DNA of 64,000 nt, from assembly GCA_964392925.1 (NCBI GenBank), contig CAYMRP010000004.1:71184-135183 (forward strand). The letters run 5' to 3'. Made by a program: the position numbers and the translations under genes. Position 1 is the first letter of the stretch. Each line of letters opens with the position of its first letter. Shown here piece after piece: positions 32,860-62,497 of this stretch. Origin of the DNA: an uncultured Gammaproteobacteria bacterium. GTDB taxonomy: Bacteria; Patescibacteriota; Microgenomatia; Daviesbacterales; UBA10151. Below the pieces are notes generated by a model. It saw only the letters and a list, made by a program, of their open reading frames with translations, had not been told where the DNA came from and did no database searches.

Positions 32860-35379
32860 ATGAAAAAACAAAATCAAAACAAAGCAGTCGCTCTACAAAT
32901 TCAAATCCCAGCAGATAACGCCAAAAAAGCCGAAATCAAAGATGTAAACAGAGCCTTTGATGAAGGAATACTTCCAAAAATCCGGACCAAAACTGAATTA
33001 GATGGTATCCGTCAAAAAGTCTTTATGGATCGCTACTCGCTTAAAGACGTTAACGGTGAACCAACCGAATTTATTCCAGAAGAAATGTGGCAAAGAGTCG
33101 CCGCTGGAATTGCTCAAATGGAAAAAACCCATCCTTTAAGAAAACATTGGGCAAAAGAGTTTTATTCTGCCATGGAAGGATTTAAATTCGTTCCAGCCGG
33201 CCGTATTCTCTCCGGTGCCGGCACGGGCTACGAAGTCACGTTCTTCAATTGCTATGTTATCCCTTCTCCCAAAGATTCAAGACAGGGCATCATGGAAAAC
33301 ATCACTCACACCGTAGAGATTCAGGCAAGAGGTGGAGGAGTTGGAATCAATCTTTCATCTTTAAGACCTCACGGTGCTCGTGTTAAAAAAGTTAACGGCA
33401 CATCCTCAGGACCAGTCTCTTGGGCAAAATTATATTCAGCCGCCAATCACGACGTTATTCAGCAGGGTGGTTCAAGACGCGGCGCTCTAATGCTCATGCT
33501 TCACGACTGGCATCCAGATGTTATTGAATTCATTCACGCCAAAGAAGATGGGGTTTCAATTCCCGGAGCTAATCTCTCAGTCTGTGTTTCTGATAAATTT
33601 ATGGAAGCCGTTCAAAAAGATGAAGAATGGGTAACTGTTTTTCCCGATGTTTCTGACCCTGAATATGATGAAAAATGGGATGGTGTTTTAGAAAATTGGA
33701 CAGAAATGGGTAAGCCAGTTATTGAATACACCAGAATGCCAGCTCGGGAAATTTGGGATCAAATCTGCACTTCAGCCTGGAAGTCCGCTGAGCCAGGTCT
33801 TCACTTCCTTGAGCGAAGCAATAAATGGGGAAATACTTGGTATTTTGAAAAATTACTCTCCACCAATCCTTGCGGTGAACAGCCTTTAGGTGAATGGGCA
33901 GTTTGTAACTTAGGCGCTATGAATCTCTCGGCTTTTGTTAATGATGAAGGGGTGTTCGATTATGACGATCTCGATGCTAAAGTCAGAGTCGCTATGAGAT
34001 TTATGGATAACGTTGTTGATGCCAACTATTATTTCTGGGAAGAGAACGAGAAAAAAGCTAAAGATATTAGAAGAACCGGCATCGGCACAATGGGCTTAGG
34101 TGATGCCTTAATCAAGATGAAACTTGCCTACGGTTCCGAAGATGCTCAACCAGTCATCGAAAAAATATATAAAACAATTAGAGATGCCTCTTATGACACA
34201 TCTTCTGACTTAGCCGCTGAAAAAGGCTCCTTCCCGATGTTTGACTCGGAAAAATATTTACAGGGCCATTTTATTAAACAGCTGCCTCAGCCAATCAGAA
34301 GCAAAATCCAAAATCAGGGCATTAGAAACGCTGTTATTTTAACTCAGGCTCCAACCGGAACTACCTCACTTCTAGCCGGTGTTTCCTCAGGAATCGAACC
34401 AGTTTTTGATTTCAAATTCACCAGAAAAGATCGAATAGGCGAGCACGTTATTTATCATCCGCTATACGAAGCCTGGATGAAGCAAAATCCTGGAGCTGAT
34501 CGCCCTCACTATTTCGTCGGCGCAAATGACATGAGTCCTATGGATCACGTTAAAGTCCAGGCTTTAATCCAGGGATACACTGATTCCTCGATTTCCAAAA
34601 CAGCCAACGCTCCTTTTGAATTCACAGTCGACCAGGTTAAAGAGCTTTATATGGAAGCATATAAATTAGGCTGCAAAGGGGTAACTTTCTTCAGAGACGG
34701 CTCAAGAACTGCCGTCTTAACTCATGGTGATGATAAAAAAACTGAGGTAGCCAAAGTAGAAATGAATTCTGCGACCACACAAGATACTGTCGTTTCTCGC
34801 CCAATGATCTTAAGAGGACGCACCTATAAAATGCAGACTCCAGTTGGAGAAGGTTTTATTACTATCAATCGTGATGAGCAAGATAATCCTTTTGAAGTCT
34901 TCATTACTGTTGGTAAAGGCGGAATGCACACAATGGCTGATGCTGAAGCAATGGGCCGTTTAGTTTCTCTATCCTTAAGACTCGCCAGAAGTGCTTCAAA
35001 CGCTGATCCTAAAACAGTTGCCCAAAAAATCTCGGCCCAACTCCGGGGAATTGGCGGCGCTTCCCACGTTGGATTCGGCAAAGATCGTGTTATGTCCTTA
35101 GCTGACGCTATTGCTAAAGCTTTAGCTGAAGATTTAGCAATAACCGCTGAAAATCCATCAGAAAAAATTGAAACTGTCCCTCTTAATTTAACAATGGAAA
35201 CAGAAACCGCTTCCCCAGTCGAAAATACTGGTGCAGATGATGTTATCACTTCTCAAATGCCGTTAATAACGGAATCTACTCAAAAAACCGCCGATCTTTG
35301 TCCGGAATGCGGACAGGCGAGTTTTGTATTCGAAGAGGGGTGCAAAAAATGCTACTCCTGCGGATACTCAATGTGTTAG
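32860..35379 (+). CDS. nrdJ: Class II (adenosylcobalamin-dependent) ribonucleotide reductase with a C-terminal Cys4 zinc finger
   Basis: Contains NPCGEQPL (catalytic Cys), TGTTS, SKT.N and the tail CPECG...CKKCYSCG. It is 839 aa and monomeric-type. Confidence 0.9.
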   Translation: MKKQNQNKAVALQIQIPADNAKKAEIKDVNRAFDEGILPKIRTKTELDGIRQKVFMDRYSLKDVNGEPTEFIPEEMWQRVAAGIAQMEKTHPLRKHWAKEFYSAMEGFKFVPAGRILSGAGTGYEVTFFNCYVIPSPKDSRQGIMENITHTVEIQARGGGVGINLSSLRPHGARVKKVNGTSSGPVSWAKLYSAANHDVIQQGGSRRGALMLMLHDWHPDVIEFIHAKEDGVSIPGANLSVCVSDKFMEAVQKDEEWVTVFPDVSDPEYDEKWDGVLENWTEMGKPVIEYTRMPAREIWDQICTSAWKSAEPGLHFLERSNKWGNTWYFEKLLSTNPCGEQPLGEWAVCNLGAMNLSAFVNDEGVFDYDDLDAKVRVAMRFMDNVVDANYYFWEENEKKAKDIRRTGIGTMGLGDALIKMKLAYGSEDAQPVIEKIYKTIRDASYDTSSDLAAEKGSFPMFDSEKYLQGHFIKQLPQPIRSKIQNQGIRNAVILTQAPTGTTSLLAGVSSGIEPVFDFKFTRKDRIGEHVIYHPLYEAWMKQNPGADRPHYFVGANDMSPMDHVKVQALIQGYTDSSISKTANAPFEFTVDQVKELYMEAYKLGCKGVTFFRDGSRTAVLTHGDDKKTEVAKVEMNSATTQDTVVSRPMILRGRTYKMQTPVGEGFITINRDEQDNPFEVFITVGKGGMHTMADAEAMGRLVSLSLRLARSASNADPKTVAQKISAQLRGIGGASHVGFGKDRVMSLADAIAKALAEDLAITAENPSEKIETVPLNLTMETETASPVENTGADDVITSQMPLITESTQKTADLCPECGQASFVFEEGCKKCYSCGYSMC

Positions 35380-35389
35380 TATCGAAAAA

Positions 35390-35534
35390 ATAAAGAAACT
35401 CCGAAGTTTGTGAAACTCAAACACTGTGCCGCAACCGTAATAGCCGGGTCGAAGGTTTCTTTGAAAGTGAATAAGTCTCACGAGCAATGAGGGTGATATT
35501 GAAAGTTACCTTCTCCAAAAGAGAAGGTTTTTTT
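35390..35534 (+). promoter_or_regulatory. Cobalamin riboswitch-like element with an intrinsic terminator
   Basis: GUGAAACUCAAACACUGUGCCGCAACCGUAA (35409-35440) parallels the conserved core GGUGnnAAUCCnnnnCnGnnCCCGCnACnGUAA (compare E. coli btuB GUGCGAAUCUGGAGCUGACGCGCAGCGGUAA). A closing helix AAAGAAAC (35392-35399) pairs with GUUUCUUU (35455-35462). A terminator follows at 35508-35534. The B12-box region is degenerate. Confidence 0.55.
35508..35534 (+). terminator. Intrinsic terminator (8-bp stem ACCTTCTC/GAGAAGGT, loop CAAAA, T-run)
   Basis: Read directly from the sequence. It lies inside the N-terminal extension of the track ORF that starts at 35487. Confidence 0.8.
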
Positions 35535-35600
35535 ATTTTCAAGCGAAAGCGAGAAAACAAAGTTTCTTTAACCCCAATTCTCCAAAGACTCCAAAATAAT

Positions 35601-36776
35601 ATGATTCAAGATTTAGAACAATATAGAAATAGGCGTGAAGTAACGAAGGCACCAATAATTAGCGGTGCGAATGCTTTAAAGTTGCAACCGCTTGTTGAAA
35701 TGACACCTCAGCTTAGGGTTGTTACTGAGCTTCCTGCTCCGATTCAAATAGACTCGTTCTTGAAAAGAAAAGTAGAGCCTCTTGCTGAAATCCCTAAAAC
35801 TCCAGAAGTCTTGGCAAGGCAACAGATAATAAATAATACAGCTGAAGCAGAGCCAGAGCGATTTATAGAAAGAGAAATTGACCCAGATAAGCCCTGGAGC
35901 GCCTTTGGACAAGTCATGTTTATAAAAGAGCATATTATTGATGGAAAATCAGTAAAGAAAATCGCTGCGATAAGTATGGCTTATCCAGGTGGGGTAGGAA
36001 CTAGAATGGCAGGGGAAGTGTTGAGTGAAACCGTCGGAATTAACCAATCTGAATTTGTAAGCTGGAAAGGTCAATCTGAAGGGGGGATTATAGCCGCAAG
36101 CAAAGAAGTTCAAAATATTACTGATCAATTTGGACTTATGGACGACTTTATTCAAAACTCCGGTTCAGTAATTAAAAACCGTCATGCTCAAGGTGAGCAC
36201 GAGGTGGTCCAGCACTTCTTCGGCCTGCAAGACACAAGGAAAGAATTTCTAGATACTGTTAAAGAAGATGCAGCTGCAATTTTAGAAAACCCTAATTTCA
36301 CGAGTAGGTCAGCGTTTGATGAGCGTTACAAGGACAAAGGTATTTACTTAATTGAAGGTATAGTGGTCGATGGAGTATGGGAAGGTGGAGATCCTCAGGG
36401 AAAAAGAATGCGTCTTGTTGATATGGCCGCAGATGAAGCACATCTAAAATGGTTGCAATGGGCTGAAAAAACAGCAAGCGAGATGAAAGGTGACGGAGTA
36501 ATTGTTGATGCAGAAGATACTGAGACAGTAACAGACTGCGGTGGAAATAAAGGATGCTCTGAATTCTTTGAAAAAATGGAAGGCAGCACATCTGAACCAA
36601 CCATCGATCTGAGCCGCTACTCTGTATCCACTGGAATAGCAGGCTCTATTGCTGCATCCGCATATTCAAAATCTCAGATTTCTGGAGGCGGAGCTCCAGC
36701 TTATGATAGTGAAAATTGCTCATCCTGCGGCAAAGACCGCTATAAAGAAGATGGCTGCAAATGCTCTACTAATTAA
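35601..36776 (+). CDS. Hypothetical 391-aa soluble protein with a Cys-rich C-terminal module
   Basis: The start is moved to the ATG at 35601 (MIQDLEQYRN) because 35487-35600 covers the riboswitch and terminator. No family is recognised. The tail reads DCGGNKGC...CSSCGKDRYKEDGCKC. Confidence 0.6.
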   Translation: MIQDLEQYRNRREVTKAPIISGANALKLQPLVEMTPQLRVVTELPAPIQIDSFLKRKVEPLAEIPKTPEVLARQQIINNTAEAEPERFIEREIDPDKPWSAFGQVMFIKEHIIDGKSVKKIAAISMAYPGGVGTRMAGEVLSETVGINQSEFVSWKGQSEGGIIAASKEVQNITDQFGLMDDFIQNSGSVIKNRHAQGEHEVVQHFFGLQDTRKEFLDTVKEDAAAILENPNFTSRSAFDERYKDKGIYLIEGIVVDGVWEGGDPQGKRMRLVDMAADEAHLKWLQWAEKTASEMKGDGVIVDAEDTETVTDCGGNKGCSEFFEKMEGSTSEPTIDLSRYSVSTGIAGSIAASAYSKSQISGGGAPAYDSENCSSCGKDRYKEDGCKCSTN

Positions 36777-36778
36777 TA

Positions 36779-37333
36779 ATGAAACCCAGCAAAAAATTTA
36801 AAGAAACAAAGCACGGTTTAACAATTATCTACACCGGTGAAGGCAAAGGTAAAACTACTGCCGCCTTAGGTTTGGCTTTACGTGCCGCAGGCTACAAAAG
36901 AAAAGTCTTAATTATCCAATTTGGCAAAACCTGGTTTTCAGGTGAGCTGGAAGGCATCAAAATGTTAAAGCCTTACGTCAAAATTATTCAGGGCGGTTTA
37001 GGTTTCGTTAAAATCTTTGATGACCAATCCGATATAAAAGACCACAAAAAAATGGCTCAGCAAACTTATGACCTATTATATAAGGAAGTTGTATCCGGAA
37101 ATTATGATGTAGTTATAGCAGATGAAATAGTTGGAGCAATTGCTGGAAAAATGGTCACCCAAAAACAAGTTATTCAACTAATAAAAGACAAACCTAAAAC
37201 CCTCGACTTGGTTTTAACCGGCCACCACGGCAAGCCTTCACTATTCAAACACGCCGATTTAGTAACCGAAATGATGCCAATAAAACACCCCTTCGAAAAA
37301 GGCTTCCTAGCTAAACCAGGAGTAGACTACTAA
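36779..37333 (+). CDS. btuR: Cob(I)yrinic acid a,c-diamide / cob(I)alamin adenosyltransferase (CobA/CobO/BtuR type)
   Basis: Contains LTIIYTGEGKGKTTAALG (P-loop of the CobA family), DE..GA and TGHH. The size is ~184 aa. Confidence 0.8.
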   Translation: MKPSKKFKETKHGLTIIYTGEGKGKTTAALGLALRAAGYKRKVLIIQFGKTWFSGELEGIKMLKPYVKIIQGGLGFVKIFDDQSDIKDHKKMAQQTYDLLYKEVVSGNYDVVIADEIVGAIAGKMVTQKQVIQLIKDKPKTLDLVLTGHHGKPSLFKHADLVTEMMPIKHPFEKGFLAKPGVDY

Positions 37334-37919: not shown

Positions 37920-40322
37920 ATGGATCCAATCTCTAACCCTATTAAACTAAGTAAAACTTTACCAGTAGGTCCTTTACGCGGCACTGTTATTTTCCCTGGC
38001 AACACAGTCCCAATCGTCTCCGCCCGTCCAAAATCACGCGCGGCCCTTGATGCTGCTTGGGCTACTAATCGTTTAGTAGTTTTCGTTGCCCAAAAGAATG
38101 AGCGCATCGATGATCCCAAAAAAGATGATTTATTCCAGGTAGGCACAGTTTGTTTAATCAAAAGAATTTTAAAAGTCGATAATGAATACCAACTTAGTGC
38201 CGAAGGCTTAACCCGTGTATTTATTAAAGGCTTCACCCAGACTGATAATTATTTAGAAGCTGAAATTGAAGAAATTCCTGAGCTATATGAGAGAAATGAA
38301 GAAACAGAAGCTTTAATTAGAACAGTTCGTGAGCAATTACGAAAATATCTGGAACTCAACGGAAATCCGTTATTTGATATGTCCTCACTTACAAACTGGC
38401 CGCTAATTTCCTCAAGCGATGATCCAAATCAGCTAGTTAATACAATTTGCCAAATGATCGAATTTAAAACAATCGATAAGCAGCAAATTTTAGAAATGGT
38501 TGCAGCCTCAGAAAGACTTCAAAGAGTCTCCGAATTACTCGCCAAAGAAATCAGAATTCTGGAAATTTCTCAAAAAATCTCTTCCCATACTCAGGAGAGA
38601 GTTTCCCGGATGACTAAAGAAGCTATTTTAAGAGAACAAATGCGCTCAATTGAAGAAGAGTTAGGTGAAGCTTCTGAAAATTCCGAAGTCCGCGAGTTTG
38701 AACTTAAGATCCGCAAAGCCAGCATGCCTAAAGAAGTTCGTGATAAAGCTAATAAAGAGCTTGGTCGTTTGGCAAAAATGTCCTCGTATAATCCTGAAGC
38801 TGCCTATATTAGAAATTACATTGAATGGTTAACTGATTTGCCTTGGAAAGGTGCACCCAAAACAAAAATCGATATGAAAAAAGCTGAAAAAGTTTTGGAT
38901 GCCGAGCATTACGGACTAAAAAAAGTTAAAGAGCGAATTATGGAATACCTAGCCGTTTATAAATTATCAGGCAAACTCCACGGCCCAATCTTATGTTTCG
39001 CTGGACCTCCGGGTACTGGAAAAACCTCAATCGGAAAATCAATCGCCAAAGCCTTAGGCCGAAAGTTTGTTAAAGTTTCTCTCGGTGGTATCAGAGACGA
39101 AGCTGAAATCAGAGGTCACAGAAGAACCTACGTTGGTTCTATGCCAGGACGCATGATCCAATCAGTCAAACAAGCTGGAACCTCAAATCCGGTCTTTATG
39201 TTAGACGAAATTGATAAAATCGGAGCCGATTACCGAGGTGATCCTTCAGCAGCCTTGCTTGAAGCGCTTGATCCTGAACAAAATCATTCCTTCTCAGATC
39301 ATTATTTAGAAGTGCCTTACGATTTGTCTAATGTTATGTTTATAACCACAGCAAACATGCTCGATACCATTCCTCCGGCACTGCGTGATCGTCTCGAAGT
39401 CATTACTTATCCAGGCTATACCAGAGATGAAAAATTTAATATCGCTAAGAACCATCTATTACCAAAAGTAATCGAGTCTCACGGACTAAAAAATTCTAAA
39501 ATCAAACTCGATTTTGATGAAAGCGCTATTTATCAGGTTATCGATGGCTACACTCGTGAAGCCGGAGTCAGAAGTTTAGAGCGGGAGCTCTCCGCAGTAA
39601 TTAGAAAAATCGCCAGAAAAATCGCTGAAGGCGAAATTAAATCTAGCTATCCGGTCACTGAAGAAGTTGTCAGAAAATTATTAGGTCCTGTTAAATTCTT
39701 GCCAGAGCTCGCTGAAATTGAAGATATGATCGGCGCTTCGACTGGCCTCGCTTGGAGTGAAGTTGGCGGATCAATTATGTTTATCGAGGTTACTTTAATG
39801 CCTGGTAAAGGTGCAATTCAATTAACAGGTCAATTAGGAGACGTTATGAAAGAATCAGCTCAAGCTGCAATGTCATATGTCCGTTCAAGTTGGGCAGCTC
39901 TAGGCTTAAATGAAAAATTCTTCCATAAAGTCGATGTTCACGTCCACGTTCCTGAAGGCGCAGTTCCTAAAGACGGTCCCTCTGCTGGAATCGCTTTAAC
40001 TACCGCTATTGTTTCAGCTTTTACTAAAATCCCTGTTAAAAAAGACATCGCCATGACCGGAGAAGTTACTTTAAGAGGTCGGGTTCTAGAAATCGGCGGC
40101 TTAAAAGAAAAAGTCCTCGCTGCCCACAGGGCTGGTGTTAAAGATATTATTATTCCTGAAAACAATAAAAAGGATTTGGAAGATATTCCAGAACATATTG
40201 TTGCTGATCTAAAATTCCACACAGTCAAGCATATGGACCAGGTACTGGAAATCGCTCTAATCAGAAATCCTTTTCCTAAAGCCAAGAAAATTCATTCAAC
40301 CCTTCCTCCAGCTTTTGCTTAA
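37920..40322 (+). CDS. lon: ATP-dependent Lon protease
   Basis: Has a Lon N-domain, Walker [10 protein letters not shown] and the protease Ser in PKDGPSAG. Confidence 0.93.
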
Positions 40323-53358: not shown

Positions 53359-53490
53359 GGCAGTTACTCTATAAGTTTATGCGAAGATAGCCTTAATAAT
53401 CAAGTAGTCGCATAAATTACGGTAGTGCTTTTTGCTCATTTCAGGTATAATCCCTCACACAGGGGAATTCCCAAAGTAAGAGTCAGTAAT

Positions 53491-56292
53491 ATGCTTAATT
53501 TTTTTTCTTCATTAATCGATGCCAATAAACGGGAAATTAATCGCCTCTCAAAAATCGTTGAAACCATTAATAGTTATGAAGCTAAAATCAAAAAGTTTGA
53601 CGATAAAAAGTTTAAAGAAAAAGCTCTAGATCTACGTAAAAGACATGAAAAAGGTGAAACCTTAGAGTCTCTTTTACCTGAAGCTTTTGCTTTCGCCCGC
53701 GAAGCCGCTAGCCGCAGCCTAGGCATGCGTCACTATGATGTTCAGCTAATGGCAGCCATCGCTTTGCACAGCGGTAAGATCGCCGAACAACGAACCGGTG
53801 AAGGAAAAACTATGTCTGGTGTTCCGGCCATTTTTCTAAATGCTCTTTCCGGTAAAGGTGTCCATGTAGTTACGGTAAATGATTATTTAGCTCGCCGCGA
53901 TGCAGGTTGGAATGGACCTATCTTTCATACTCTAGGTGTTTCAGTCTCAGTTATTATTCATGAAAAGGCTTTTCTTTTTGATCCAAAATATAAAGATCCA
54001 GACACAACAGATAAACGGCTTAAGAATTTAAGACCAGTCACTCGCAAAGAAGCTTATGCTGCTGATATAACTTACGGCACTAATAATGAGTTTGGTTTTG
54101 ATTATCTAAGGGACAACATGGCCAACAGCTTGGATAATATGGTTCAGCGAGGTCACAATTTCGCCATCGTTGATGAAGTAGATTCAATTTTAATTGACGA
54201 GGCCCGTACTCCATTAATTATTTCAGCCCCCGATACTGAGCCCACAGGTAAATATATTGAGTTCACCAAAATCGTCAGTCAGCTTGATGGTAAAACAGAT
54301 TATGTAGTTAACGAAAAAGAACGTGCAGCCCACATGACAGAGGAAGGTATTCTTCATATCGAAAAAATTATGGGTGTCGATAATCTTTATGAAAAAGATT
54401 TTTCTGCTCTTCACCATATAGAAGAAGCCTTAAAAGCCAGAACCCTTTTTCTTAAAGACCGCGACTATGTTGTTAAAGATGGCGAAGTAATTATTGTTGA
54501 TGAATTCACTGGCCGTTTAATGCCGGGCCGCCGTTACTCCGGAGGTCTACATCAATCAATCGAAGCCAAAGAAGGCGTTAAAATCCAACAAGAGTCAAAA
54601 ACTTTAGCCACAATTTCTTTCCAGAATTACTTCAGAATGTATAAAAAGCTTTCTGGTATGACTGGAACTGCAGCCACCGAAGCAGAAGAATTCTTTAAAA
54701 TCTATAAGCTGGAAGTAGTTATTATCCCAACTCATCAACCTATGATCAGAAAAGATAATCCTGATGCTATCTTTAAAACCCAAACCGGTAAATTGATGGC
54801 CGTCGCCTCAGAAGTTGAAAAAATTCATGCATCTGGCCAGCCTGTTTTAGTAGGTACAACTTCGATTGATAAAAACGAATTCTTATCTGAACTCTTAAAG
54901 AAAAAGCGGATCTCCCACGCACTTTTAAATGCTAAAAACCACGAACGCGAGGCCGAAATTATTGCTGATGCCGGTCAAAAAGGTTCAGTAACTGTAGCCA
55001 CTAACTTAGCCGGTCGTGGTGTCGATATTAAGCTTGGTAAAAATGTTGAAAAATTAGGCGGACTTTATGTTATCGGTACCGAACGTCACGAATCAAGGAG
55101 AATCGATAATCAATTAAGAGGCCGCTCAGGTCGTCAGGGTGACCCGGGTGCTTCCAAATTCTTTGTTTCTCTTGAAGATGATTTAATGAGAATCTTTGGC
55201 GGCGAGCAAGTCGCAAGAGTCATGGGCTTTTTAAAAATGCCGGAAGATACTCCTATCGAAAACGGTATGGTTTCCAAAGCAATTGAAGGCGCACAGAAAA
55301 AAGTTGAAGGTCATAATTTTGATATCCGTAAACATACAGTTGAATACGACGACGTTATGAATCAGCAGCGCCAGATTATTTATGGTGTCAGAAGGAATGT
55401 CCTGGATGTCTTAGCTGGAAAATCCAAAGATGGTAAATCTCTTAAGGATGAAATCATCGAAAAAATCGGCATTGAAGTCGAAGCCATCATTGATGACTAT
55501 GCGATTGAAGGGGAGATAGAATATGAAAAAATTATCGAAGATTTCTCAACCATAATTAATTTTGATCAAGCCAGCCGTAAACAGCTATTAGGCCAAATCT
55601 CAGATATCAAAGATGAAGCTAAATTAAAAGAATTTTTAGTCCGTCTCGCCGAAGATCTCTACGGTGAAAAAGAAAAAACCGTCGGTGCCGATCTGATGCG
55701 CCAAATGGAAAGCTTTGTTTACTTAAACACAATTGATACTTTTTGGATGGAACATCTCGATACAATGGATGATCTTCGCTCAGGTATCGGATTGCGCGGA
55801 TATGCCCAAAGAGATCCTCTAATCGAATATAAAAAAGAAGGCTTTGAGTTATTCGAAAAAATGATTGCTGAAATTGATTCAGAAATTGCCAGACGTATCT
55901 ATAAAGTCTCAATGCATAATCATGGGCCAGTCCAGGTTGTTTCTCCAATCGATATGTCAAAAGCCGTCGCAACCCACGATGAGGCGCTCGATGAAAAAAC
56001 CTTACTTGAAGAAGTCGGCCAGCTTATGCCGTCAGTTCCTGAAGTTCGCCACAGCGGAACCAAAATCAAAGTTGAAGGCTCAAGTAATGATGAGGCATAC
56101 TCTCAGACTCCGACTGTAGTCGAAGAACCAGTTGCTGCCGGCACCCGAGTTACTGTTGAAAGAGCCGGTCAGGTTGTCTCACAAGATGTCTATAACGATA
56201 CAGGTTCGCTCCAAAGGAAAAAGCCTGGCAGAAATGACCCCTGCCACTGCGGTTCAGGCAAAAAATATAAAAAATGCCATTATCCTAATTAG
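53491..56292 (+). CDS. secA: Preprotein translocase ATPase SecA
   Basis: Contains MRHYDVQL, GEGKT, DEVDSILIDEARTPLIIS and the C-terminal zinc motif CHCGSGKKYKKCH. The start is set at the ATG at 53491 (MLNFFSSL). Confidence 0.93.
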   Translation: MLNFFSSLIDANKREINRLSKIVETINSYEAKIKKFDDKKFKEKALDLRKRHEKGETLESLLPEAFAFAREAASRSLGMRHYDVQLMAAIALHSGKIAEQRTGEGKTMSGVPAIFLNALSGKGVHVVTVNDYLARRDAGWNGPIFHTLGVSVSVIIHEKAFLFDPKYKDPDTTDKRLKNLRPVTRKEAYAADITYGTNNEFGFDYLRDNMANSLDNMVQRGHNFAIVDEVDSILIDEARTPLIISAPDTEPTGKYIEFTKIVSQLDGKTDYVVNEKERAAHMTEEGILHIEKIMGVDNLYEKDFSALHHIEEALKARTLFLKDRDYVVKDGEVIIVDEFTGRLMPGRRYSGGLHQSIEAKEGVKIQQESKTLATISFQNYFRMYKKLSGMTGTAATEAEEFFKIYKLEVVIIPTHQPMIRKDNPDAIFKTQTGKLMAVASEVEKIHASGQPVLVGTTSIDKNEFLSELLKKKRISHALLNAKNHEREAEIIADAGQKGSVTVATNLAGRGVDIKLGKNVEKLGGLYVIGTERHESRRIDNQLRGRSGRQGDPGASKFFVSLEDDLMRIFGGEQVARVMGFLKMPEDTPIENGMVSKAIEGAQKKVEGHNFDIRKHTVEYDDVMNQQRQIIYGVRRNVLDVLAGKSKDGKSLKDEIIEKIGIEVEAIIDDYAIEGEIEYEKIIEDFSTIINFDQASRKQLLGQISDIKDEAKLKEFLVRLAEDLYGEKEKTVGADLMRQMESFVYLNTIDTFWMEHLDTMDDLRSGIGLRGYAQRDPLIEYKKEGFELFEKMIAEIDSEIARRIYKVSMHNHGPVQVVSPIDMSKAVATHDEALDEKTLLEEVGQLMPSVPEVRHSGTKIKVEGSSNDEAYSQTPTVVEEPVAAGTRVTVERAGQVVSQDVYNDTGSLQRKKPGRNDPCHCGSGKKYKKCHYPN

Positions 56293-56300
56293 GTTTTTCT

Positions 56301-56723
56301 ATGATAAAAACAGCCAGCGAAATAGTTGACCAACTTAGAACCGAAGGTCACCGTATCACCCCGATTAGAAATCGGATTCTCGATATTCTCTCCAAGAGCA
56401 CAGAGCCTATTTCGGCATTAGATTTAATAGCAGACTTTAAATCCTCAAATCTTAACGTTAACAAAACCACCATCTACCGGGAAATAGAATTTTTATTAGG
56501 CAAAAATCTTATTAATGAAGTTGAATTTGGAGATGGCAAAAAAAGATACGAGATGGATAATGGGCATCACCATCACTTAGTTTGCTTAAAGTGTGGCAAA
56601 GTTGAAGATGTTAGTTTGGAGACGGATTTATCATCGGAAGAAAAAAAGATAGAAAAAGAAACAGGTTTTAAAGTTGAATCTCATTCATTAGAATTTTTTG
56701 GAATTTGTAAAACCTGCCAATAG
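56301..56723 (+). CDS. Fur-family metalloregulator (Fur/Zur/PerR not distinguishable)
   Basis: Has a winged helix, HHHHLVCLKCGKV and a C-terminal CKTC. Confidence 0.8.
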   Translation: MIKTASEIVDQLRTEGHRITPIRNRILDILSKSTEPISALDLIADFKSSNLNVNKTTIYREIEFLLGKNLINEVEFGDGKKRYEMDNGHHHHLVCLKCGKVEDVSLETDLSSEEKKIEKETGFKVESHSLEFFGICKTCQ

Positions 56724-56743
56724 AACTTTACTAAAGGTAAGTT
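56724..56743. promoter_or_regulatory. Imperfect 20-bp palindrome (AACTTtaCTAAAGgtAAGTT) between the Fur-family gene and the flavin operon
   Basis: 7 of 10 positions are self-complementary. It does not resemble the 7-1-7 Fur/Zur/PerR boxes. Confidence 0.2.
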
Positions 56744-56808
56744 GTTTACTAACAGCGATTTTCGTGCTAACTTAATCAAGTCAAATTCAAAACGAAAGGG
56801 GGTGTTTT

Positions 56809-57291
56809 ATGGAAGAACAAGTAAATACACAAGGCAGTTTGCCGAAGTTTGTAATGCCCACTGTTGTTGCAGCTCTAATAGTGTTCGCAGTTATCGGTTA
56901 TTATTTTTATAATTCCGGCTCAAATAACTCGTCTCAGCCAGCATCCACTATGGAAGGCCAAGGTTCTCCTGCAGCGGTTTCAGAAAGTAATTCGAATTAT
57001 AAAAATGGTACTTACACCATTAACGGGGAATACGTTAGCCCAGGAGGGCCCAGAGAAATTGGGGTAACTTTAACTTTGACTGATGGTTTAGTAACCGCAG
57101 CAGAGAGTCAGGTGCTCGCCGAGGATGCCACCTCTAAAAGATTCCAAACCGAGTTCGTTGAAGGTTTTAAACCAATGGTTATTGGTAAAAGTCTAAACGA
57201 AGTCGTTCTATCAAAAGTTTCGGGCTCATCTTTAACTCCTAAAGGATTTAATGATGCTGTCGAAAAGATTAAAGTTGAGGCTCAGTCTTAA
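56809..57291 (+). CDS. Membrane-anchored extracytoplasmic FMN-binding-domain protein (predicted ApbE substrate)
   Basis: Contains YKNGTYTINGEY...GVTLTLTDGLVT...SKVSGSSLTPKGFNDAVEKI. This parallels the FMN_bind layout, including the D/S-x-x-SGA[TS] flavinylation motif position. Confidence 0.65.
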   Translation: MEEQVNTQGSLPKFVMPTVVAALIVFAVIGYYFYNSGSNNSSQPASTMEGQGSPAAVSESNSNYKNGTYTINGEYVSPGGPREIGVTLTLTDGLVTAAESQVLAEDATSKRFQTEFVEGFKPMVIGKSLNEVVLSKVSGSSLTPKGFNDAVEKIKVEAQS

Positions 57292-58170
57292 ATGATTTGG
57301 GATCAAAAGTTTAATTTTGAAGAAATAGGAACCTCATGGACTATTGAATATTCAGGAGTCTCAAAACTTTCACCTGAATTACTTATAGAAAAGATCCGCG
57401 CAGAAATTAATAAATTCTCGCGGGTTTTTTCTAGGTTTGACAAAAATTCAGCGGTTTTTAAATCAAGTAAAACCGCATCTGAGATTATTATTCCGGAAGC
57501 TTATTTACCGCTTCTAGCTATCTATAAATCTTTATATAAATTAACTGACGGTTTATTCACTCCTCTTGTTGGAAATTTACTTTCTGAATCAGGCTACGAC
57601 GAAGATTATTCTCTGGTTCAAAAAAAATTAAATCCTGTTCCGCAGTGGGACCAAGTTATTGAGATTTCCGGAGAAACAATTAAATTTAAAAAGCCCTGGC
57701 TTCTAGATTTTGGCGCGGCCGGCAAAGGATTTATTGTTGATCTGATAGGGGAGTTGCTGGAAGATCAAAATATTAAGTCCTATTGTATAGATGCCGGCGG
57801 AGACATTCGCTATAAATCTGATAACAATGAAAAACTAAAAATCGGCCTTGAGCACCCCGATAATTTAGATCAGGTTCTTGGAGTTGCAGATCTAGAAACA
57901 GGTAGTATTTGCGGCTCATCTGGAAATCGCCGCAAATGGGCAAATCTTCACCATATTTTCAACCCTAAAAAACTTGATTCTGTTAGAGAAGTCCTGGCAG
58001 TTTGGGTAATTTCAGATACTACTTTAATAGCAGATGCTCTCTCGACAGCTTTATTCTTTGTAAACCCGGAAAAGCTTTTAGGAGATTTTAAGTTTCAATT
58101 TCTAATAATTTACCCGGATTTCACTTTTAAAAAATCCCCAAACTTCCCCGGTGAAGTATATGTGGCATGA
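57292..58170 (+). CDS. apbE: FAD:protein FMN transferase (ApbE family)
   Basis: Contains GT.W.I, FGAAGKGFIVD and CIDAGGDIRY. The ATG abuts the upstream TAA. Confidence 0.8.
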   Translation: MIWDQKFNFEEIGTSWTIEYSGVSKLSPELLIEKIRAEINKFSRVFSRFDKNSAVFKSSKTASEIIIPEAYLPLLAIYKSLYKLTDGLFTPLVGNLLSESGYDEDYSLVQKKLNPVPQWDQVIEISGETIKFKKPWLLDFGAAGKGFIVDLIGELLEDQNIKSYCIDAGGDIRYKSDNNEKLKIGLEHPDNLDQVLGVADLETGSICGSSGNRRKWANLHHIFNPKKLDSVREVLAVWVISDTTLIADALSTALFFVNPEKLLGDFKFQFLIIYPDFTFKKSPNFPGEVYVA

Positions 58171-58197
58171 GATGTCCAAGTCGGGTAAACTAGAATA

Positions 58198-59718
58198 ATG
58201 TACTTACTTAATAAAATTGATTCTCTTCTAAATTCAATCACCATGTACCGGCTGGTGCTATATGTATTACTAGTCCAATCCGCATTCGCAATAATTCTAG
58301 GTTTTCTAAATCTCCTACCTTATTCCGGAATCCAATTCACACTGACGCTTCTAGTTTTAGTCATAGTTAGTTATATATCCAATTTAATTTTTGCCTGGAC
58401 CGTCAAAGCCGTAGTTAACGTAGAGTCCTGGTTAATAACTGCCTTGATTCTTTTTTTAGTCCTGGCCCCGATAAATAATTTTCAGGATTTTATAGTCACC
58501 ACTGTTATCGCGATAGTGGCTATGGCTTCCAAATACTTTTTAACTTATGACAAAAGACATATCTTTAATCCGGCCGCTTTAGCTATGTTTCTAGCTAGCC
58601 TTTTCGGTTTCGGAAATTCTATTTGGTGGATTGGAAGTTCAATTATGCTGCCTGTCGTTTTAGTAACCGGCTTATTAATTGTTAGAAAAATTAGGAGATT
58701 TAGGTTAGTGATTATGTTCCTTGTCACAGCTGTCCTAACAGTCAGTGTCTTTAATTATTTAAATGGTATTCCTCTTACCCAAGCCTTAATCCAAGTTTTT
58801 ACATCTTGGCCTTTAATCTTTTTTGCAACGATTATGTTAACAGAGCCATTCACAACTCCTCCCAACAGAGAGTTCCGAAATTACTACGGAGTTTTTACTG
58901 GAGCATTATTTGGCTCTCAATTCTCAATCGGTCCTCTTTACGCTTCTCCAGAGCTCGCCCTAGTTGCCGGTAATTTTGTGTCATTTCTTTTAAGTCCTAA
59001 GGGTAAATTAATCCTTAAGTTTAAACAAAGAAACCAACTCGCTCCAACAATTTTCGAATTTATTTTTTCTCACAATGGGAAATATAATTTTACTCCTGGC
59101 GAATATTTAGAATGGACCCTGCCTCACCCAAATTCAGATTCAAGAGGTGTCAGAAGATATTTCACTATTGCCTCCTCCCCAGAAGAACCAGATTTAAAAC
59201 TTGGGGTTAAAATTATTCCTGATAAATCAAGTAGTTTTAAAAAAGCTCTCTTGGCTTTACAGCCCGGCAGTACACTTGCCGCCGACCAACTCTCGGGTGA
59301 TTTTGTCCTGCCTAAAAATCCCTCTCAAAAATTAGTTTTTATTGCTGGAGGAATCGGGGTAACTCCGTTTCGCAGTATGATTAATAGTCTAATTGTTAGT
59401 GGCGCAAAAAAGGACATAGTCCTTTTTTATAGCGCCGCAGATCCAAAAGAATTCGTCTATAAAGATATTTTCACTCAAGCAGAATCTTCCGGACTTAAAA
59501 CAGTTTATGTTTTTGGCGGTAAAGAAGTACCGCCTGATTGGCAAGGGGAGACAGGATTTCTAAATGAAGCAATGCTCAGAAAATATGTCCCTGATCTGAA
59601 AGAACGGAAATTCTATATGTCAGGTCCTGTCGCGATGGTTAACAATTATAAAGGCCTTCTGAAAACCCTAGGCATCTCCAACTCATCAATCGTTACCGAC
59701 TACTTCCCCGGCTTCTAG
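58198..59718 (+). CDS. Fusion of an RnfD/NqrB-like polytopic membrane domain with a ferredoxin-NAD(P)+ reductase-like FAD/NAD(P)-binding domain
   Basis: The N-terminal ~270 aa carry FNPAAL and IMLTEPFTTPP (compare FFMATDPVTSP of RnfD/NqrB). The C-terminal part carries RRYFTIASSP (RxY[ST]) and FIAGGIGVTPF (GGxGxxP). Confidence 0.7.
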   Translation: MYLLNKIDSLLNSITMYRLVLYVLLVQSAFAIILGFLNLLPYSGIQFTLTLLVLVIVSYISNLIFAWTVKAVVNVESWLITALILFLVLAPINNFQDFIVTTVIAIVAMASKYFLTYDKRHIFNPAALAMFLASLFGFGNSIWWIGSSIMLPVVLVTGLLIVRKIRRFRLVIMFLVTAVLTVSVFNYLNGIPLTQALIQVFTSWPLIFFATIMLTEPFTTPPNREFRNYYGVFTGALFGSQFSIGPLYASPELALVAGNFVSFLLSPKGKLILKFKQRNQLAPTIFEFIFSHNGKYNFTPGEYLEWTLPHPNSDSRGVRRYFTIASSPEEPDLKLGVKIIPDKSSSFKKALLALQPGSTLAADQLSGDFVLPKNPSQKLVFIAGGIGVTPFRSMINSLIVSGAKKDIVLFYSAADPKEFVYKDIFTQAESSGLKTVYVFGGKEVPPDWQGETGFLNEAMLRKYVPDLKERKFYMSGPVAMVNNYKGLLKTLGISNSSIVTDYFPGF

Positions 59719-59728
59719 TTATATTACG

Positions 59729-59785
59729 TTTCGAACGCAGTGAGAAAAACATGCTCTTCATATTTTTCGAGCATAGCGAGAAAAT
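59729..59785 (+). repeat. Copies 2 and 3 of the dispersed 21-nt motif (59729-59749 and 59765-59785)
   Basis: TTTCGAACGCAGTGAGAAAAA and TTTCGAGCATAGCGAGAAAAT closely match copy 1 at 2246. Confidence 0.6.
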
Positions 59786-59817
59786 ACTTTACTGTGTTTC
59801 GCTAACAAGTTAGAATA

Positions 59818-59864
59818 TTGACAAACGCCACAAAGTTGCATATACTTAATGCCACAAGGTTGCA
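59818..59864 (+). promoter_or_regulatory. Promoter TTGACA-17-TATACT flanked by two 14-bp direct repeats GCCACAA[A/G]GTTGCA
   Basis: TTGACA lies at 59818-59823 and TATACT at 59841-59846. The direct repeats lie at 59827-59840 and 59851-59864, 24 bp start to start, and the second ends 3 nt before the ATG. Confidence 0.6.
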
Positions 59865-59867
59865 ATT

Positions 59868-60857
59868 ATGGAAAGAAGAGAAGCCTCTAACGAACTAAAT
59901 AAATCACTAAACTCTGTTGGCTTAAGACTTGAAGGTGCCCCAAAAGTTATAATCCCTAAAACGCTTAGTGCTGAAATTCTGGCAGCAAAAGCCATCGCTA
60001 TGTCAGAAGACATGCAATATGGTTTTGATTTAGCAAATATAGTCACAGATCTCAGGCAATCTGCAATCAGAACCCTAAAAGACGGAAAGTCCTTTCCATT
60101 AGTACTGGATATACCAAACCTCGCAGATCCGAATTATGAACCTACTCCAGCTGATATTGCGCCTTCTTTGCTCGCCGCAAGTCTTGGAAGTTTTGCAATT
60201 GTCAGGATTGCTATGCCAAACTCAGATCACAGTATATCGCAGCTTTACGGAACAACTACACCCAGAACAAACATTGATGAGGGGGAACTGCAATTTACTT
60301 ACATCGGATTAAGAGTCTCGAGTAAGAGCGGTTATAAATGGGAGTCCCCCGCGCAAATAGATCCTTTAAGACCAGACCTGGTCTCTCCGGCCGATATGGA
60401 AACTTATTTATCAGGTGCAAATCAACTCGGCCTAGTTGGTGATCACGATAACTCAGGAATAAAAGTTTCAGATCCAAGACACTTAATAAATCTCCTCCAC
60501 GGCCTAGCAAATCCTGGACTTAGCGGACATTGGGCAGATGCACTTGAAAGTAATGGTCAAAGAAAACTTTTGACCGAAACATCAGCAAAAAGAATAATTG
60601 CCCCTAACGAGTTTGGCGACAGCTTGTATCAAGACCCCCTAAACACGACCCCTGTATTCACAATAGGTGCAGAGAGAATTCCCATGGCCATAGTTCTGGC
60701 CCCTGAACTTATGGAAGATATAGATTCTCTTGAAACCAGACGCAGTAATAAACCGGGAAGTCTTGAAACTTTGCAAGGAATGGCGCTCGCTGCACGTTTC
60801 GCGCAGAGATTAGGGGATAGCTTAGATCGGGCAATACCTAAAAGCGGAATGATTTAA
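59868..60857 (+). CDS. Hypothetical 329-aa soluble protein
   Basis: ORF with a strong promoter. No recognisable motif. Confidence 0.55.
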   Translation: MERREASNELNKSLNSVGLRLEGAPKVIIPKTLSAEILAAKAIAMSEDMQYGFDLANIVTDLRQSAIRTLKDGKSFPLVLDIPNLADPNYEPTPADIAPSLLAASLGSFAIVRIAMPNSDHSISQLYGTTTPRTNIDEGELQFTYIGLRVSSKSGYKWESPAQIDPLRPDLVSPADMETYLSGANQLGLVGDHDNSGIKVSDPRHLINLLHGLANPGLSGHWADALESNGQRKLLTETSAKRIIAPNEFGDSLYQDPLNTTPVFTIGAERIPMAIVLAPELMEDIDSLETRRSNKPGSLETLQGMALAARFAQRLGDSLDRAIPKSGMI

Positions 60858-60859
60858 CT

Positions 60860-61396
60860 ATGCTAGAGACAGCATCACCTAAAAAATTATTTGGAAAGAA
60901 AAAAATAGAATCTCAGGATATATCAACTCATTCTTTGGGAAACCCAATTCTAATAACAGAAACTCTCGACATTTTTAACCAAAGCCTGAGTGCCGAGATT
61001 ATAAAACAGGACCAGCAAATTACAGAGGTCCTTAAAAAAACATCAGATAACTTTATTAACTTCACAGGTCCTAAAGTTTTAGATTGGAATAAAAGTACTG
61101 GAAGAATAGCATTAGCAGAAAGTGTCATCAAAAATTCCGAAACCGAGTTTTTAGCATTCCGGCAAAGAATGACCGCTATGGCAGATGCTGATGGTTGCGG
61201 TGGTAAAAATGAAATTGCAAAATCTTCAGAGTCTGCTCTTTCTTCAAATGCGAATGTTATAGATTTTGGACAGGCGAAATTAAACAAAGCCTTAGGGATA
61301 AATAATAAACATACTCATAAATCAGGGGAACACGATCATTGTTCTCACGGCAATGATTACGGAGAATGCCCTAGCGGTTGTAAAAAAGCAGCCTAA
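60860..61396 (+). CDS. Hypothetical 178-aa protein with a His/Cys-rich C-terminal module
   Basis: Contains DGCGGKNE...VIDF...HTHKSGEHDHCSHGNDYGECPSGCKK, a layout like the tail of the 35601 ORF. The ATG lies 2 nt after the upstream stop. Confidence 0.55.
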   Translation: MLETASPKKLFGKKKIESQDISTHSLGNPILITETLDIFNQSLSAEIIKQDQQITEVLKKTSDNFINFTGPKVLDWNKSTGRIALAESVIKNSETEFLAFRQRMTAMADADGCGGKNEIAKSSESALSSNANVIDFGQAKLNKALGINNKHTHKSGEHDHCSHGNDYGECPSGCKKAA

Positions 61397-61417
61397 ACTC
61401 TAAAATTAGCTGACTAA

Positions 61418-62497
61418 ATGAAAAAAATCCTAGCAGTACTTCTCCTTTTTCTTGCGTTACAAATATCTCCTGCTTTAGCTCAGGAAAACTTAGATCAGAC
61501 CATAAATTCCTCTGGGTATTCAACCCCGACCGATGAAATAAAACTTGAAGGTGTAGTTTTAGAAGATGGAAAAAAAGTCGAAGTGACCTCTCCTAACCGG
61601 CAGGGCGAAATTCTAAATACTGAGCAATCTTTTAATGCCCCTAATTCTCCGAGTTTTAAAAATGGTGATAAAGTAAAAGTTTCAATCTTTACGAATCCTG
61701 ATAACTCTCAGCAAATTTTCATTACTGATTTTATTAGAACCAGCCCGCTTTATTGGCTGTTCGGGTTATTTGTTTTGCTTGTTTTAATAATAGGAAAAAA
61801 ATCAGGACTCGGCTCGCTCGTCGGTATGGCTATATCTTTTGCAGTTCTATTCCTTTTTATTGTTCCCCAAATAACCGCCGGTCAAAATCCAATCTGGACT
61901 ACTTTAATTGGAGTATTATTTATTCTTCCTATAACTTTTTATCTATCCCACGGCATCAATAAAAAAACTACTATTGCTCTTGTTTCAACTTTTCTTTCTG
62001 TTTGTTTTACCAGTCTATTATCAATCTTCTTTATTAATACCGCCAAAATTTCCGGCTATGCTAGTGAACAGGCCGGCTTTATTCAAACTGCCAGAAGCGG
62101 AAGCTTCGATATTCAGGGATTATTATTTGCCGGAATTGTAATAAGCATAATTGGTATTCTGGATGATGTCACTATTTCTCAGGCCTCCATTGTTAATCAA
62201 CTGAAGATCGAACTACCAAAAGCTAAAGTGCTAGAGCTTTATAAAAAAGCTATGAATATTGGTCGCGATCATATTGGCTCTGTTGTAAATACGTTAATTC
62301 TTGTTTATGCCGGCGCATCCCTGCCGCTTTTAGTTTTATTCACAGACAGCAGTATTGGTTTTAACGAAGCGCTCAACAATGAAATAGTCGCCGAAGAAAT
62401 AGTAAAAACTCTGGTTGCCAGCATCGGACTTGTTCTATCAATTCCTTTGACCACAATTCTGGCTGCTTATTTTCTCAGTAATGACAAAGAAGCTTAA
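61418..62497 (+). CDS. YibE/F-family membrane protein
   Basis: Has a signal peptide, a soluble N-domain and a polytopic region with GILDDVTISQAS and MNIGRDHIGSVVNTL, as in the YibE/F family. Confidence 0.65.
   Translation: MKKILAVLLLFLALQISPALAQENLDQTINSSGYSTPTDEIKLEGVVLEDGKKVEVTSPNRQGEILNTEQSFNAPNSPSFKNGDKVKVSIFTNPDNSQQIFITDFIRTSPLYWLFGLFVLLVLIIGKKSGLGSLVGMAISFAVLFLFIVPQITAGQNPIWTTLIGVLFILPITFYLSHGINKKTTIALVSTFLSVCFTSLLSIFFINTAKISGYASEQAGFIQTARSGSFDIQGLLFAGIVISIIGILDDVTISQASIVNQLKIELPKAKVLELYKKAMNIGRDHIGSVVNTLILVYAGASLPLLVLFTDSSIGFNEALNNEIVAEEIVKTLVASIGLVLSIPLTTILAAYFLSNDKEA

Follow-up and report, generated by a model that had tools for sequence, protein, structure and literature searches.

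The question raised by the locus examined here is whether two Cys/His-rich C-terminal tails, carried by two different proteins of the same bacterium, are copies of one module. The two proteins, hereinafter A and B, are encoded on a stretch of 64,000 nucleotides (positions 71,184 to 135,183 of the forward strand of contig CAYMRP010000004.1, assembly GCA_964392925.1; hereinafter the window) from an uncultured bacterium assigned by GTDB to the Patescibacteriota. An earlier reading of the letters alone, hereinafter the sequence-only reading, had aligned the two tails by eye and, given two copies in 25 kb, had proposed a lineage-specific metal- or cofactor-binding module shared by otherwise unrelated proteins. 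Our analysis partly confirmed the observation and partly supported its interpretation. In particular, the tails appear to be two convergent, tethered metal knuckles at the C termini of unrelated orphan families, a reading to which we assign a probability of roughly 0.65, and their resemblance would reside in the ligand pattern and composition within a very Cys-poor proteome rather than in a shared module.

Comparison of the two tails

The mechanical frame of open reading frame (ORF) A spans 35487-36776 on the plus strand (429 aa). The true start is likely the Met of MIQDLEQY (ATG at 35601), and since the homologues begin there, the real gene is taken to be 35601-36776, which encodes 391 aa; the first 38 codons of the mechanical frame (35487-35600) overlap the terminator of a putative riboswitch. 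Residue numbers (C351, C357, C411 and so forth) are those of the 429-aa frame. The protein is soluble and consists of a disordered N terminus, a confidently predicted alpha/beta core without a known fold and the tail. In the AlphaFold2 model, the predicted local distance difference test score (pLDDT) exceeds 90 in the core through about residue 345 and falls below 50 at residues 347-356, 368-413 and 415-429, directly after the core. Such a drop would put the knuckle on the far end of a flexible arm and the CGG cysteine immediately beyond the final strand of the core. The tail considered in the sequence-only reading (36531-36773) corresponds to the last 81 residues, TDCGGNKGCSEFFEKMEGSTSEPTIDLSRYSVSTGIAGSIAASAYSKSQISGGGAPAYDSENCSSCGKDRYKEDGCKCSTN, and translates as TDCGGNKGC...CSSCGKDRYKEDGCKCSTN. 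In this region we could distinguish a CGG box (VIVDAEDTETVTDCGGNKGCSEFFEKMEG, 36498-36584), which comprises two Cys (C351 and C357) together with the final strand of the core, a linker (36585-36701) of 39 weakly conserved Ser/Gly/Ala-rich residues, which includes TIDL and shows low identity within the family and low pLDDT, and a terminal knuckle (CSSCGKDRYKEDGCKC, 36717-36764) containing C411, C414, C424 and C426. The protein ends in STN.

ORF B (60860-61396, plus strand) encodes a soluble, mostly helical or disordered protein of 178 aa, for which AlphaFold2 gives a helical prediction (pLDDT of the model, 53) with a low-confidence tail. Its last 70 residues, DADGCGGKNEIAKSSESALSSNANVIDFGQAKLNKALGINNKHTHKSGEHDHCSHGNDYGECPSGCKKAA (61184-61393), translate as DADGCGGKNE...CSHGNDYGECPSGCKKAA and comprise a DGCGG motif (C113, 61190-61204), which is invariant in nine close homologues and reads DGHG in the homologues P0075-77, a linker of 35 residues including VIDF (61205-61309), conserved among close members only, and the end of the protein (61310-61393), with the His-rich lead-in HTHKSGEHDH, the knuckle CSHGNDYGECPSGC (C161, H163, C170 and C174) and a terminal KKAA. 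The motifs and coordinates reported for both tails proved accurate, as did the 35 residues counted between TIDL and CSSC in A, whereas the other three spacers had been miscounted: there are 14 residues rather than 17 between GC and TIDL, 14 rather than 18 between NE and VIDF, and 24 rather than 20 between VIDF and CSH.

The likeness of the two tails did not exceed that expected by chance. BLASTP of A against B returned no tail alignment, its best match (E = 5) lying elsewhere and a three-residue match of GCK (3/3) reaching E = 13. Smith-Waterman and global alignment of tail against tail with BLOSUM62, under four gap and mode settings, gave z scores of -1.1, +0.5, -0.7 and +1.4 with respect to 2000 composition-matched shuffles of both tails, 9-91% of which scored as high as the real pair; this is the outcome that the sequence-only reading itself had regarded as fatal to a shared module. 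Comparison of the small tail profiles (21 sequences for A and 9 for B) with hhalign aligned only the four columns DCGG/GCGG with confidence (Prob 0.8%, P = 0.07-0.08), and 6.5-7% of 200 column-shuffled B profiles reached the real score. The extended tail profiles (56 and 17 sequences) gave P = 0.071, and in local, global and mact-0 modes, with small as well as extended profiles, P never fell below 0.07. The full-length profiles gave P = 0.13, in line with the proposal that the two proteins are otherwise unrelated; judging from their sequences, A and B are unrelated outside the tails. Moreover, a hidden Markov model (HMM) built from the last 34 residues of family A scored the B protein of the window at -5.4 bits, a value equalled or bettered by 88% of 10,200 composition-matched shuffled decoys. 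The top B member, P0072, obtained 4.5 bits, which 2.2% of the decoys matched and which is not significant over 17 tests. At the DNA level, blastn-short of the two tails found only word matches of 7-9 nt and no similarity.

The anchors of the visual alignment fared similarly. The middle anchor [TV]ID[LF], supposed to be common to both tails, varies freely in family A, where IKNL, DKLN, ISLS and others occupy the position of TIDL, and VIDF is conserved among close members of family B and lost in distant ones. CGG is replaced by CC[GV] in deep branches of family A. Furthermore, the ligand spacings differ at every step, being C-x2-C-x9-C-x-C in A of the window and C-x-H-x6-C-x3-C in B. Finally, 4 of the 72 ORFs of at least 90 aa in the window end in a Cys cluster (at least three Cys in the last 25 residues), namely, NrdJ, A, SecA and B; because the well-known tails of NrdJ and SecA are themselves such clusters, two Cys tails in 25 kb are unremarkable and the argument drawn from their proximity is weak.

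Ligand conservation within the two families

Homologues were first gathered for A (20) and B (8). Profile searches then extended both families, with 46 matches in 1.84 billion protein representatives for A and a total of 16 homologues for B. The A profile recovered essentially full-length relatives of A; the tail region contained the best-scoring stretch of one match only, P0069, and the matches included no protein of family B. In a genome collection, a profile of family A matched only one Patescibacteria metagenome-assembled genome. Scans of both proteins and of the isolated tails against Pfam and NCBIfam gave no match, and a PDB sequence search with both tails returned only noise (E of about 0.7-1) and no sequence relatives. 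Both proteins therefore remain the unknowns they had been taken for. They belong to orphan families found mainly in metagenome assemblies, and the distribution of both looks narrow, which agrees with the lineage specificity proposed for the tails.

Within each family the proposed conservation of the Cys/His positions is borne out, with a spacing that is family specific and so provides no link between A and B. All six Cys of A and all four Cys of B in the window lie within the last 100 residues and none elsewhere, in a proteome with a Cys frequency of 0.75%. The alignment of 21 family A sequences shows no variation at C351, C411, C414 and C424 and almost none at C426; C351 is also kept in the set of 56 sequences, and C357, found in most members, is missing in many, with a divergent clade having CC instead. 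The four-Cys knuckle C-x2-C-x5-12-C-x-C occurs in 43 of the 55 classified A members, and the remaining 12 retain four ligands in the combinations CCHC (5), CHCC (4), CCCH (2) and CHCH (1), with His replacing one ligand in 11 of them and two in one. As for family B, C161, C170 and C174 are invariant in the alignment, and the census of 16 classified members gave 14 CHCC knuckles (C-x-H-x6-C-x2-3-C) and 2 CCCC knuckles (C-x2-C-x8-C-x2-C); even the upstream Cys is replaced by His where DGCGG becomes DGHG, in P0075-77. A tetrahedral metal site would lead one to expect that Cys and His replace each other while the number of ligands stays constant, and with four-ligand clusters kept across 55 and 16 homologues, a metal-binding role, as originally proposed, appears to be the best reading of each tail.

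The knuckles are conserved independently of the bodies that carry them. In family A, the homologues P0018, P0019, P0020, P0056 and P0069 share about 15% identity with A in the core and 75-83% in the last 24 residues, while P0013 is 59% identical in the core and 35% in the knuckle. In family B, P0075-77 are about 15% identical to B over the N-terminal 100 residues and 85-88% over the last 26, while for P0023-25 the values are about 68% in the N-terminal part and about 22% in the knuckle. Knuckle and body identity are thus uncoupled in both families. Taken with the like ligand layout, the -AA ends and the A-like knuckle of P0071/72 described below, this suggests that the knuckles coevolve with something other than their own protein bodies, without thereby establishing common ancestry. 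A recent DNA transfer was considered as the source of the knuckle in divergent A proteins and was rejected, since half of the identical residues use different codons: over their last 23 residues, A and its very divergent homologue P0018 (locus L005) have 18 in common, of which only 9 are encoded by the same codon. The codon pattern points to purifying selection at the protein rather than at the DNA level. Each tail is a real, selected feature.

Both families also share an excess of C termini ending in -AA, found in 13 of 17 B sequences and 10 of 56 A sequences compared with 2 of 154 neighbouring genes (Fisher's exact test, 2e-14 for B and 4e-5 for A, in a test that ignores phylogeny). In family A, the -AA often follows an extension of 6-12 residues past the last Cys; in B of the window it is encoded at 61388-61393. 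Protein ends in -AA recall ssrA-type degrons. A search of all loci with ARAGORN for a transfer-messenger RNA tag to be compared with these ends found no such gene. The Lon protease gene (37920-40322) lies two genes from A.

As a separate observation on family A, the N terminus of about 85 disordered residues (window 35601-35860) contains the conserved motif MIQxLEQYRNRR ... GANALxLQP ... PQLRIV, kept even in the divergent clade of P0018-20, which may be a partner-binding peptide.

Gene neighbourhoods and possible roles

The genomic contexts of A and B differ, and each is conserved. ORF A lies between the class II ribonucleotide reductase (RNR) gene nrdJ, upstream, and the gene for the corrinoid adenosyltransferase CobO, which is co-oriented and directly follows at 36779. 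The claim that A is riboswitch controlled is consistent with its upstream region, where a putative adenosylcobalamin (AdoCbl)-II-like aptamer (35392-35462, plus strand; Rfam RF01689, E = 3e-6 in a scan of 601 nt, with 34.1 bits where the gathering score is 36.5) is followed by an intrinsic terminator (35508-35538, plus strand) with an 8-bp stem, ACCTTCTC/GAGAAGGT, and a T-tract, as the expression platform. A riboswitch-like element of 27-41 bits, below the Rfam gathering thresholds (clan CL00101), was present upstream of every A homologue examined. In particular, the AdoCbl/AdoCbl-II matches at L001 (3817-3887), L004 (5816-5939) and L005 (5907-5976) occupy the same position and are all subthreshold, with 28.8, 41.5 (gathering score, 50) and 27.4 bits. 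Possibly the element represents a Patescibacteria version of the AdoCbl/AdoCbl-II aptamer that has diverged.

From this gene context, A probably helps to handle corrinoids or to supply AdoCbl. Of the two families, A is the more promising lead: the protein is soluble, its core is confidently predicted and has no PDB match, it is under cobalamin riboswitch-like control, and it keeps a fixed place between CobO and an NrdJ with a cysteine-rich domain (CRD), in genomes dependent on scavenged B12. This makes A a candidate for an unknown step in the way corrinoids are processed or delivered. Two further features of the A loci were noticed. An extra gene of 209 aa without a Pfam match, absent from the window, lies between A and cobO in L001 (5165-5794) and L002 (4064-4693), and the locus of the divergent homologue P0018 contains a DUF4153 membrane protein (L005, 1023-2726) just upstream of NrdR.

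The gene order around B is always Fur, a 160-aa protein, ApbE, a reductase (506 aa, with RnfD-like and NAD-binding domains), a 329-aa protein of unknown function, B and a YibE/F membrane protein. In the window, this cluster occupies 56301-62497, with a riboflavin kinase (flavokinase) and an EamA transporter on the opposite strand. The cluster may represent a Fur-controlled, flavin-dependent reductase and metal system, and the context suggests that B probably functions in metal handling or flavin-linked chemistry, a job other than that of A. Nothing usable came from the literature on YibE or on cobalamin riboswitches in Patescibacteria.

Under the convergent reading, the two families would have arrived independently at one general plan for the C terminus. 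The body, folded or helical, would close with a conserved thiol (that of xCGG in A and of DGCGG in B), followed by a flexible linker of 39 residues in A and of 35 residues plus the 10-residue His-rich stretch in B, and the extreme C terminus would form a short four-ligand Cys/His knuckle. The knuckle would most likely wrap one tetrahedral metal ion, Zn2+ by default and possibly Fe, so that a flexible arm would carry a small folded head, as is the case for the SecA tail and the NrdJ CRD of the same window. The thiol upstream (in most A proteins a pair, C-x5-C) may be available for another task, whether as a redox pair, as a fifth ligand or in the ligation of cobalt.

Several points weigh against convergence, and most of them are those on which the competing proposal of a single, possibly mobile, lineage-specific module (CGG, linker, knuckle and -AA) grafted on unrelated proteins would rest. 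The elements follow in the same order, with a 1 + 4 ligand layout in both families (one thiol at the junction of body and linker and a four-ligand knuckle). The CGG tripeptide is common to both, A and B being the only window ORFs of at least 90 aa with CGG in the last 120 residues. Both families share the -AA excess and the independence of the knuckle from the body, and in the B subclade P0071/72 the knuckle (CDNCGSDKEDGICKQC) resembles that of family A. Moreover, the hhalign P value of about 0.07 is nonzero, and the best local match of the full-length profiles is tail to tail, knuckle on knuckle. It is possible that these parallels stem from a shared partner or from common ancestry far in the past, either of which could be undetectable with about 20 informative residues; in addition, AlphaFold2 gives no confident model of the tails, and the metal site is a prediction. 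We nevertheless consider one module decidedly improbable, since no test was significant (z of at most 1.4, P of about 0.07, a negative HMM score for B of the window), every spacing differs, TIDL/VIDF and, in deep A branches, CGG are not conserved, and the A profile retrieved no B-family protein among 1.84 billion and only P0069 by its tail. With the claim of a shared lineage-specific module failing, its direct importance is low. As a long shot, the tails could be functionally one device without demonstrable homology, a metal knuckle on a tether by which an ssrA-like -AA carboxy terminus is exposed or concealed, so that stability or partner binding of A (as a B12-handling factor) and of B (as a Fur-cluster factor) tracks the supply of metal or cofactor. 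If true, this would account at once for the -AA enrichment, the body-independent conservation of the knuckles and the extra thiol at the body-linker junction of both families.

Instead of structural Zn sites, the tails could also be hypothesized to serve in redox reactions, whether as a dithiol shuttle or as an Fe(Cys)4 or Fe-S centre, with A passing electrons to corrinoid reduction for CobO or exchanging them with the NrdJ CRD and B being the partner of an ApbE-flavinylated reductase. CxxCG is also the signature of the rubredoxin knuckle, and both neighbourhoods are redox related: CobO needs cob(I)alamin, and the B cluster includes ApbE and the RnfD-like/NAD-binding protein. The 2 + 4 arrangement of the six Cys of A parallels the four Zn ligands plus redox pair of the NrdJ CRD (PMC5704485), and SecA-like knuckles can bind iron (bioRxiv 10.1101/613315). 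We regard this proposal as rather unlikely, given that no canonical Fe-S spacing such as CxxCxxC occurs, that single replacements of Cys by His are frequent, as is more typical of Zn sites, and that many members lack the second of the upstream Cys of A. The riboswitch, furthermore, presumably turns A off when AdoCbl, the cofactor of the RNR, is plentiful, which argues against A as the routine reductant of the AdoCbl-dependent NrdJ, a role that we consider unlikely. The opposite view, namely, that the tails are meaningless low-complexity ends whose Cys pattern is due to chance or to a gene-calling artefact, could appeal to the low AlphaFold2 confidence and to the lack of any database family. 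It is effectively refuted, to judge from the conservation data, by Cys that are invariant or nearly so across homologues with only about 15% core identity, by synonymous divergence alongside amino acid conservation and by the confinement of all Cys to the tail in a proteome with so few of them.

Likeness to known tethered metal knuckles

The predicted metal knuckles of A and B can be compared with four known designs. The zinc-ribbon/rubredoxin-type knuckle (CxxC[G]...CxxC) resembles the tails in the CxxCG of A and of the B subclade P0071/72, in the four ligands and in the tolerance of Cys-to-His replacement. It differs in the second half, which is CxC in A and Cx2-3C in B, and in that the unit of 12-19 residues lacks the beta-hairpins of a full ribbon; none of the zinc-ribbon models of Pfam matched A or B.

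His- and Cys-rich C-terminal tails occur in metallochaperones such as HypB, UreE, SlyD and CooJ. B recalls them in its HTHKSGEHDHCSH stretch, its cytoplasmic location and the nearby Fur-family regulator and membrane protein. However, no homology of B to these proteins was found, its body is that of an unknown helical protein, and nickel, urease or hydrogenase genes are absent from its neighbourhood.

The NrdJ CRD of the window, a six-Cys array (35299-35376, plus strand) at the C terminus of the class II RNR (ORF 32860-35379), is encoded immediately upstream of A. The pattern described for this domain is C-x2-C-x9-10-C-x2-C-x2-C-x4-5-C, ending a domain of 150-220 aa that is fused to or split from NrdJ, with four Cys proposed to bind Zn and two to form a redox pair; its native reductant or physiological electron donor was reported as unknown (Loderer et al. 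2017, PMC5704485). A likewise has six C-terminal Cys in a 2 + 4 arrangement. The CRD, however, is a folded domain of 150-220 residues with its six Cys within about 26 residues, whereas the two extra Cys of A lie about 55-60 residues before the knuckle, across a disordered linker. The resulting spacing of A (C-x5-C, 53 residues, C-x2-C-x9-C-x-C) does not fit the CRD array, no sequence similarity connects the two, and B has only four Cys plus a His. Structural Cys-Zn sites often arise by convergence (PMC5704485).

In the SecA of the window (ORF 53425-56292), the C-terminal metal-binding domain, or SEC-C motif (CHCGSGKKYKKCH, 56230-56286, plus strand; Pfam PF02810, 35.4 bits), belongs to a tail that consists of a flexible linker together with a metal-binding domain of small size, which binds Zn and for which Fe has also been reported as a ligand (bioRxiv 10.1101/613315). 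In SecA, A and B alike, a flexible linker connects the body to a Cys/His knuckle, about 20 residues long, that forms the extreme C terminus, and basic or aromatic residues stand between the ligand pairs in both SecA (CHCGSGKKYKKCH) and A (CSSCGKDRYKEDGCKC). The SEC-C HMM (motif C-x-C-x-S-G-x8-C-[CH]) gave no match at an E value of at most 10 with four tail fragments. The ligand patterns are different, C-x-C-x8-C-H in SecA compared with C-x2-C-x9-C-x-C in A and C-x-H-x6-C-x3-C in B, and A and B have an additional upstream conserved thiol. As to position, both A and B fit the SecA design, the knuckle lying at the extreme C terminus after a flexible linker, with low pLDDT over most of linker and knuckle. 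Two orphan families, so far only in metagenome assemblies and Patescibacteria-type genomes, thus carry strongly selected C-terminal Cys/His knuckles outside any curated family. A and B are best described as uncatalogued variants of the tethered C-terminal metal-knuckle design, and in this respect they would join SecA and NrdJ as examples of a metal knuckle on a flexible arm.

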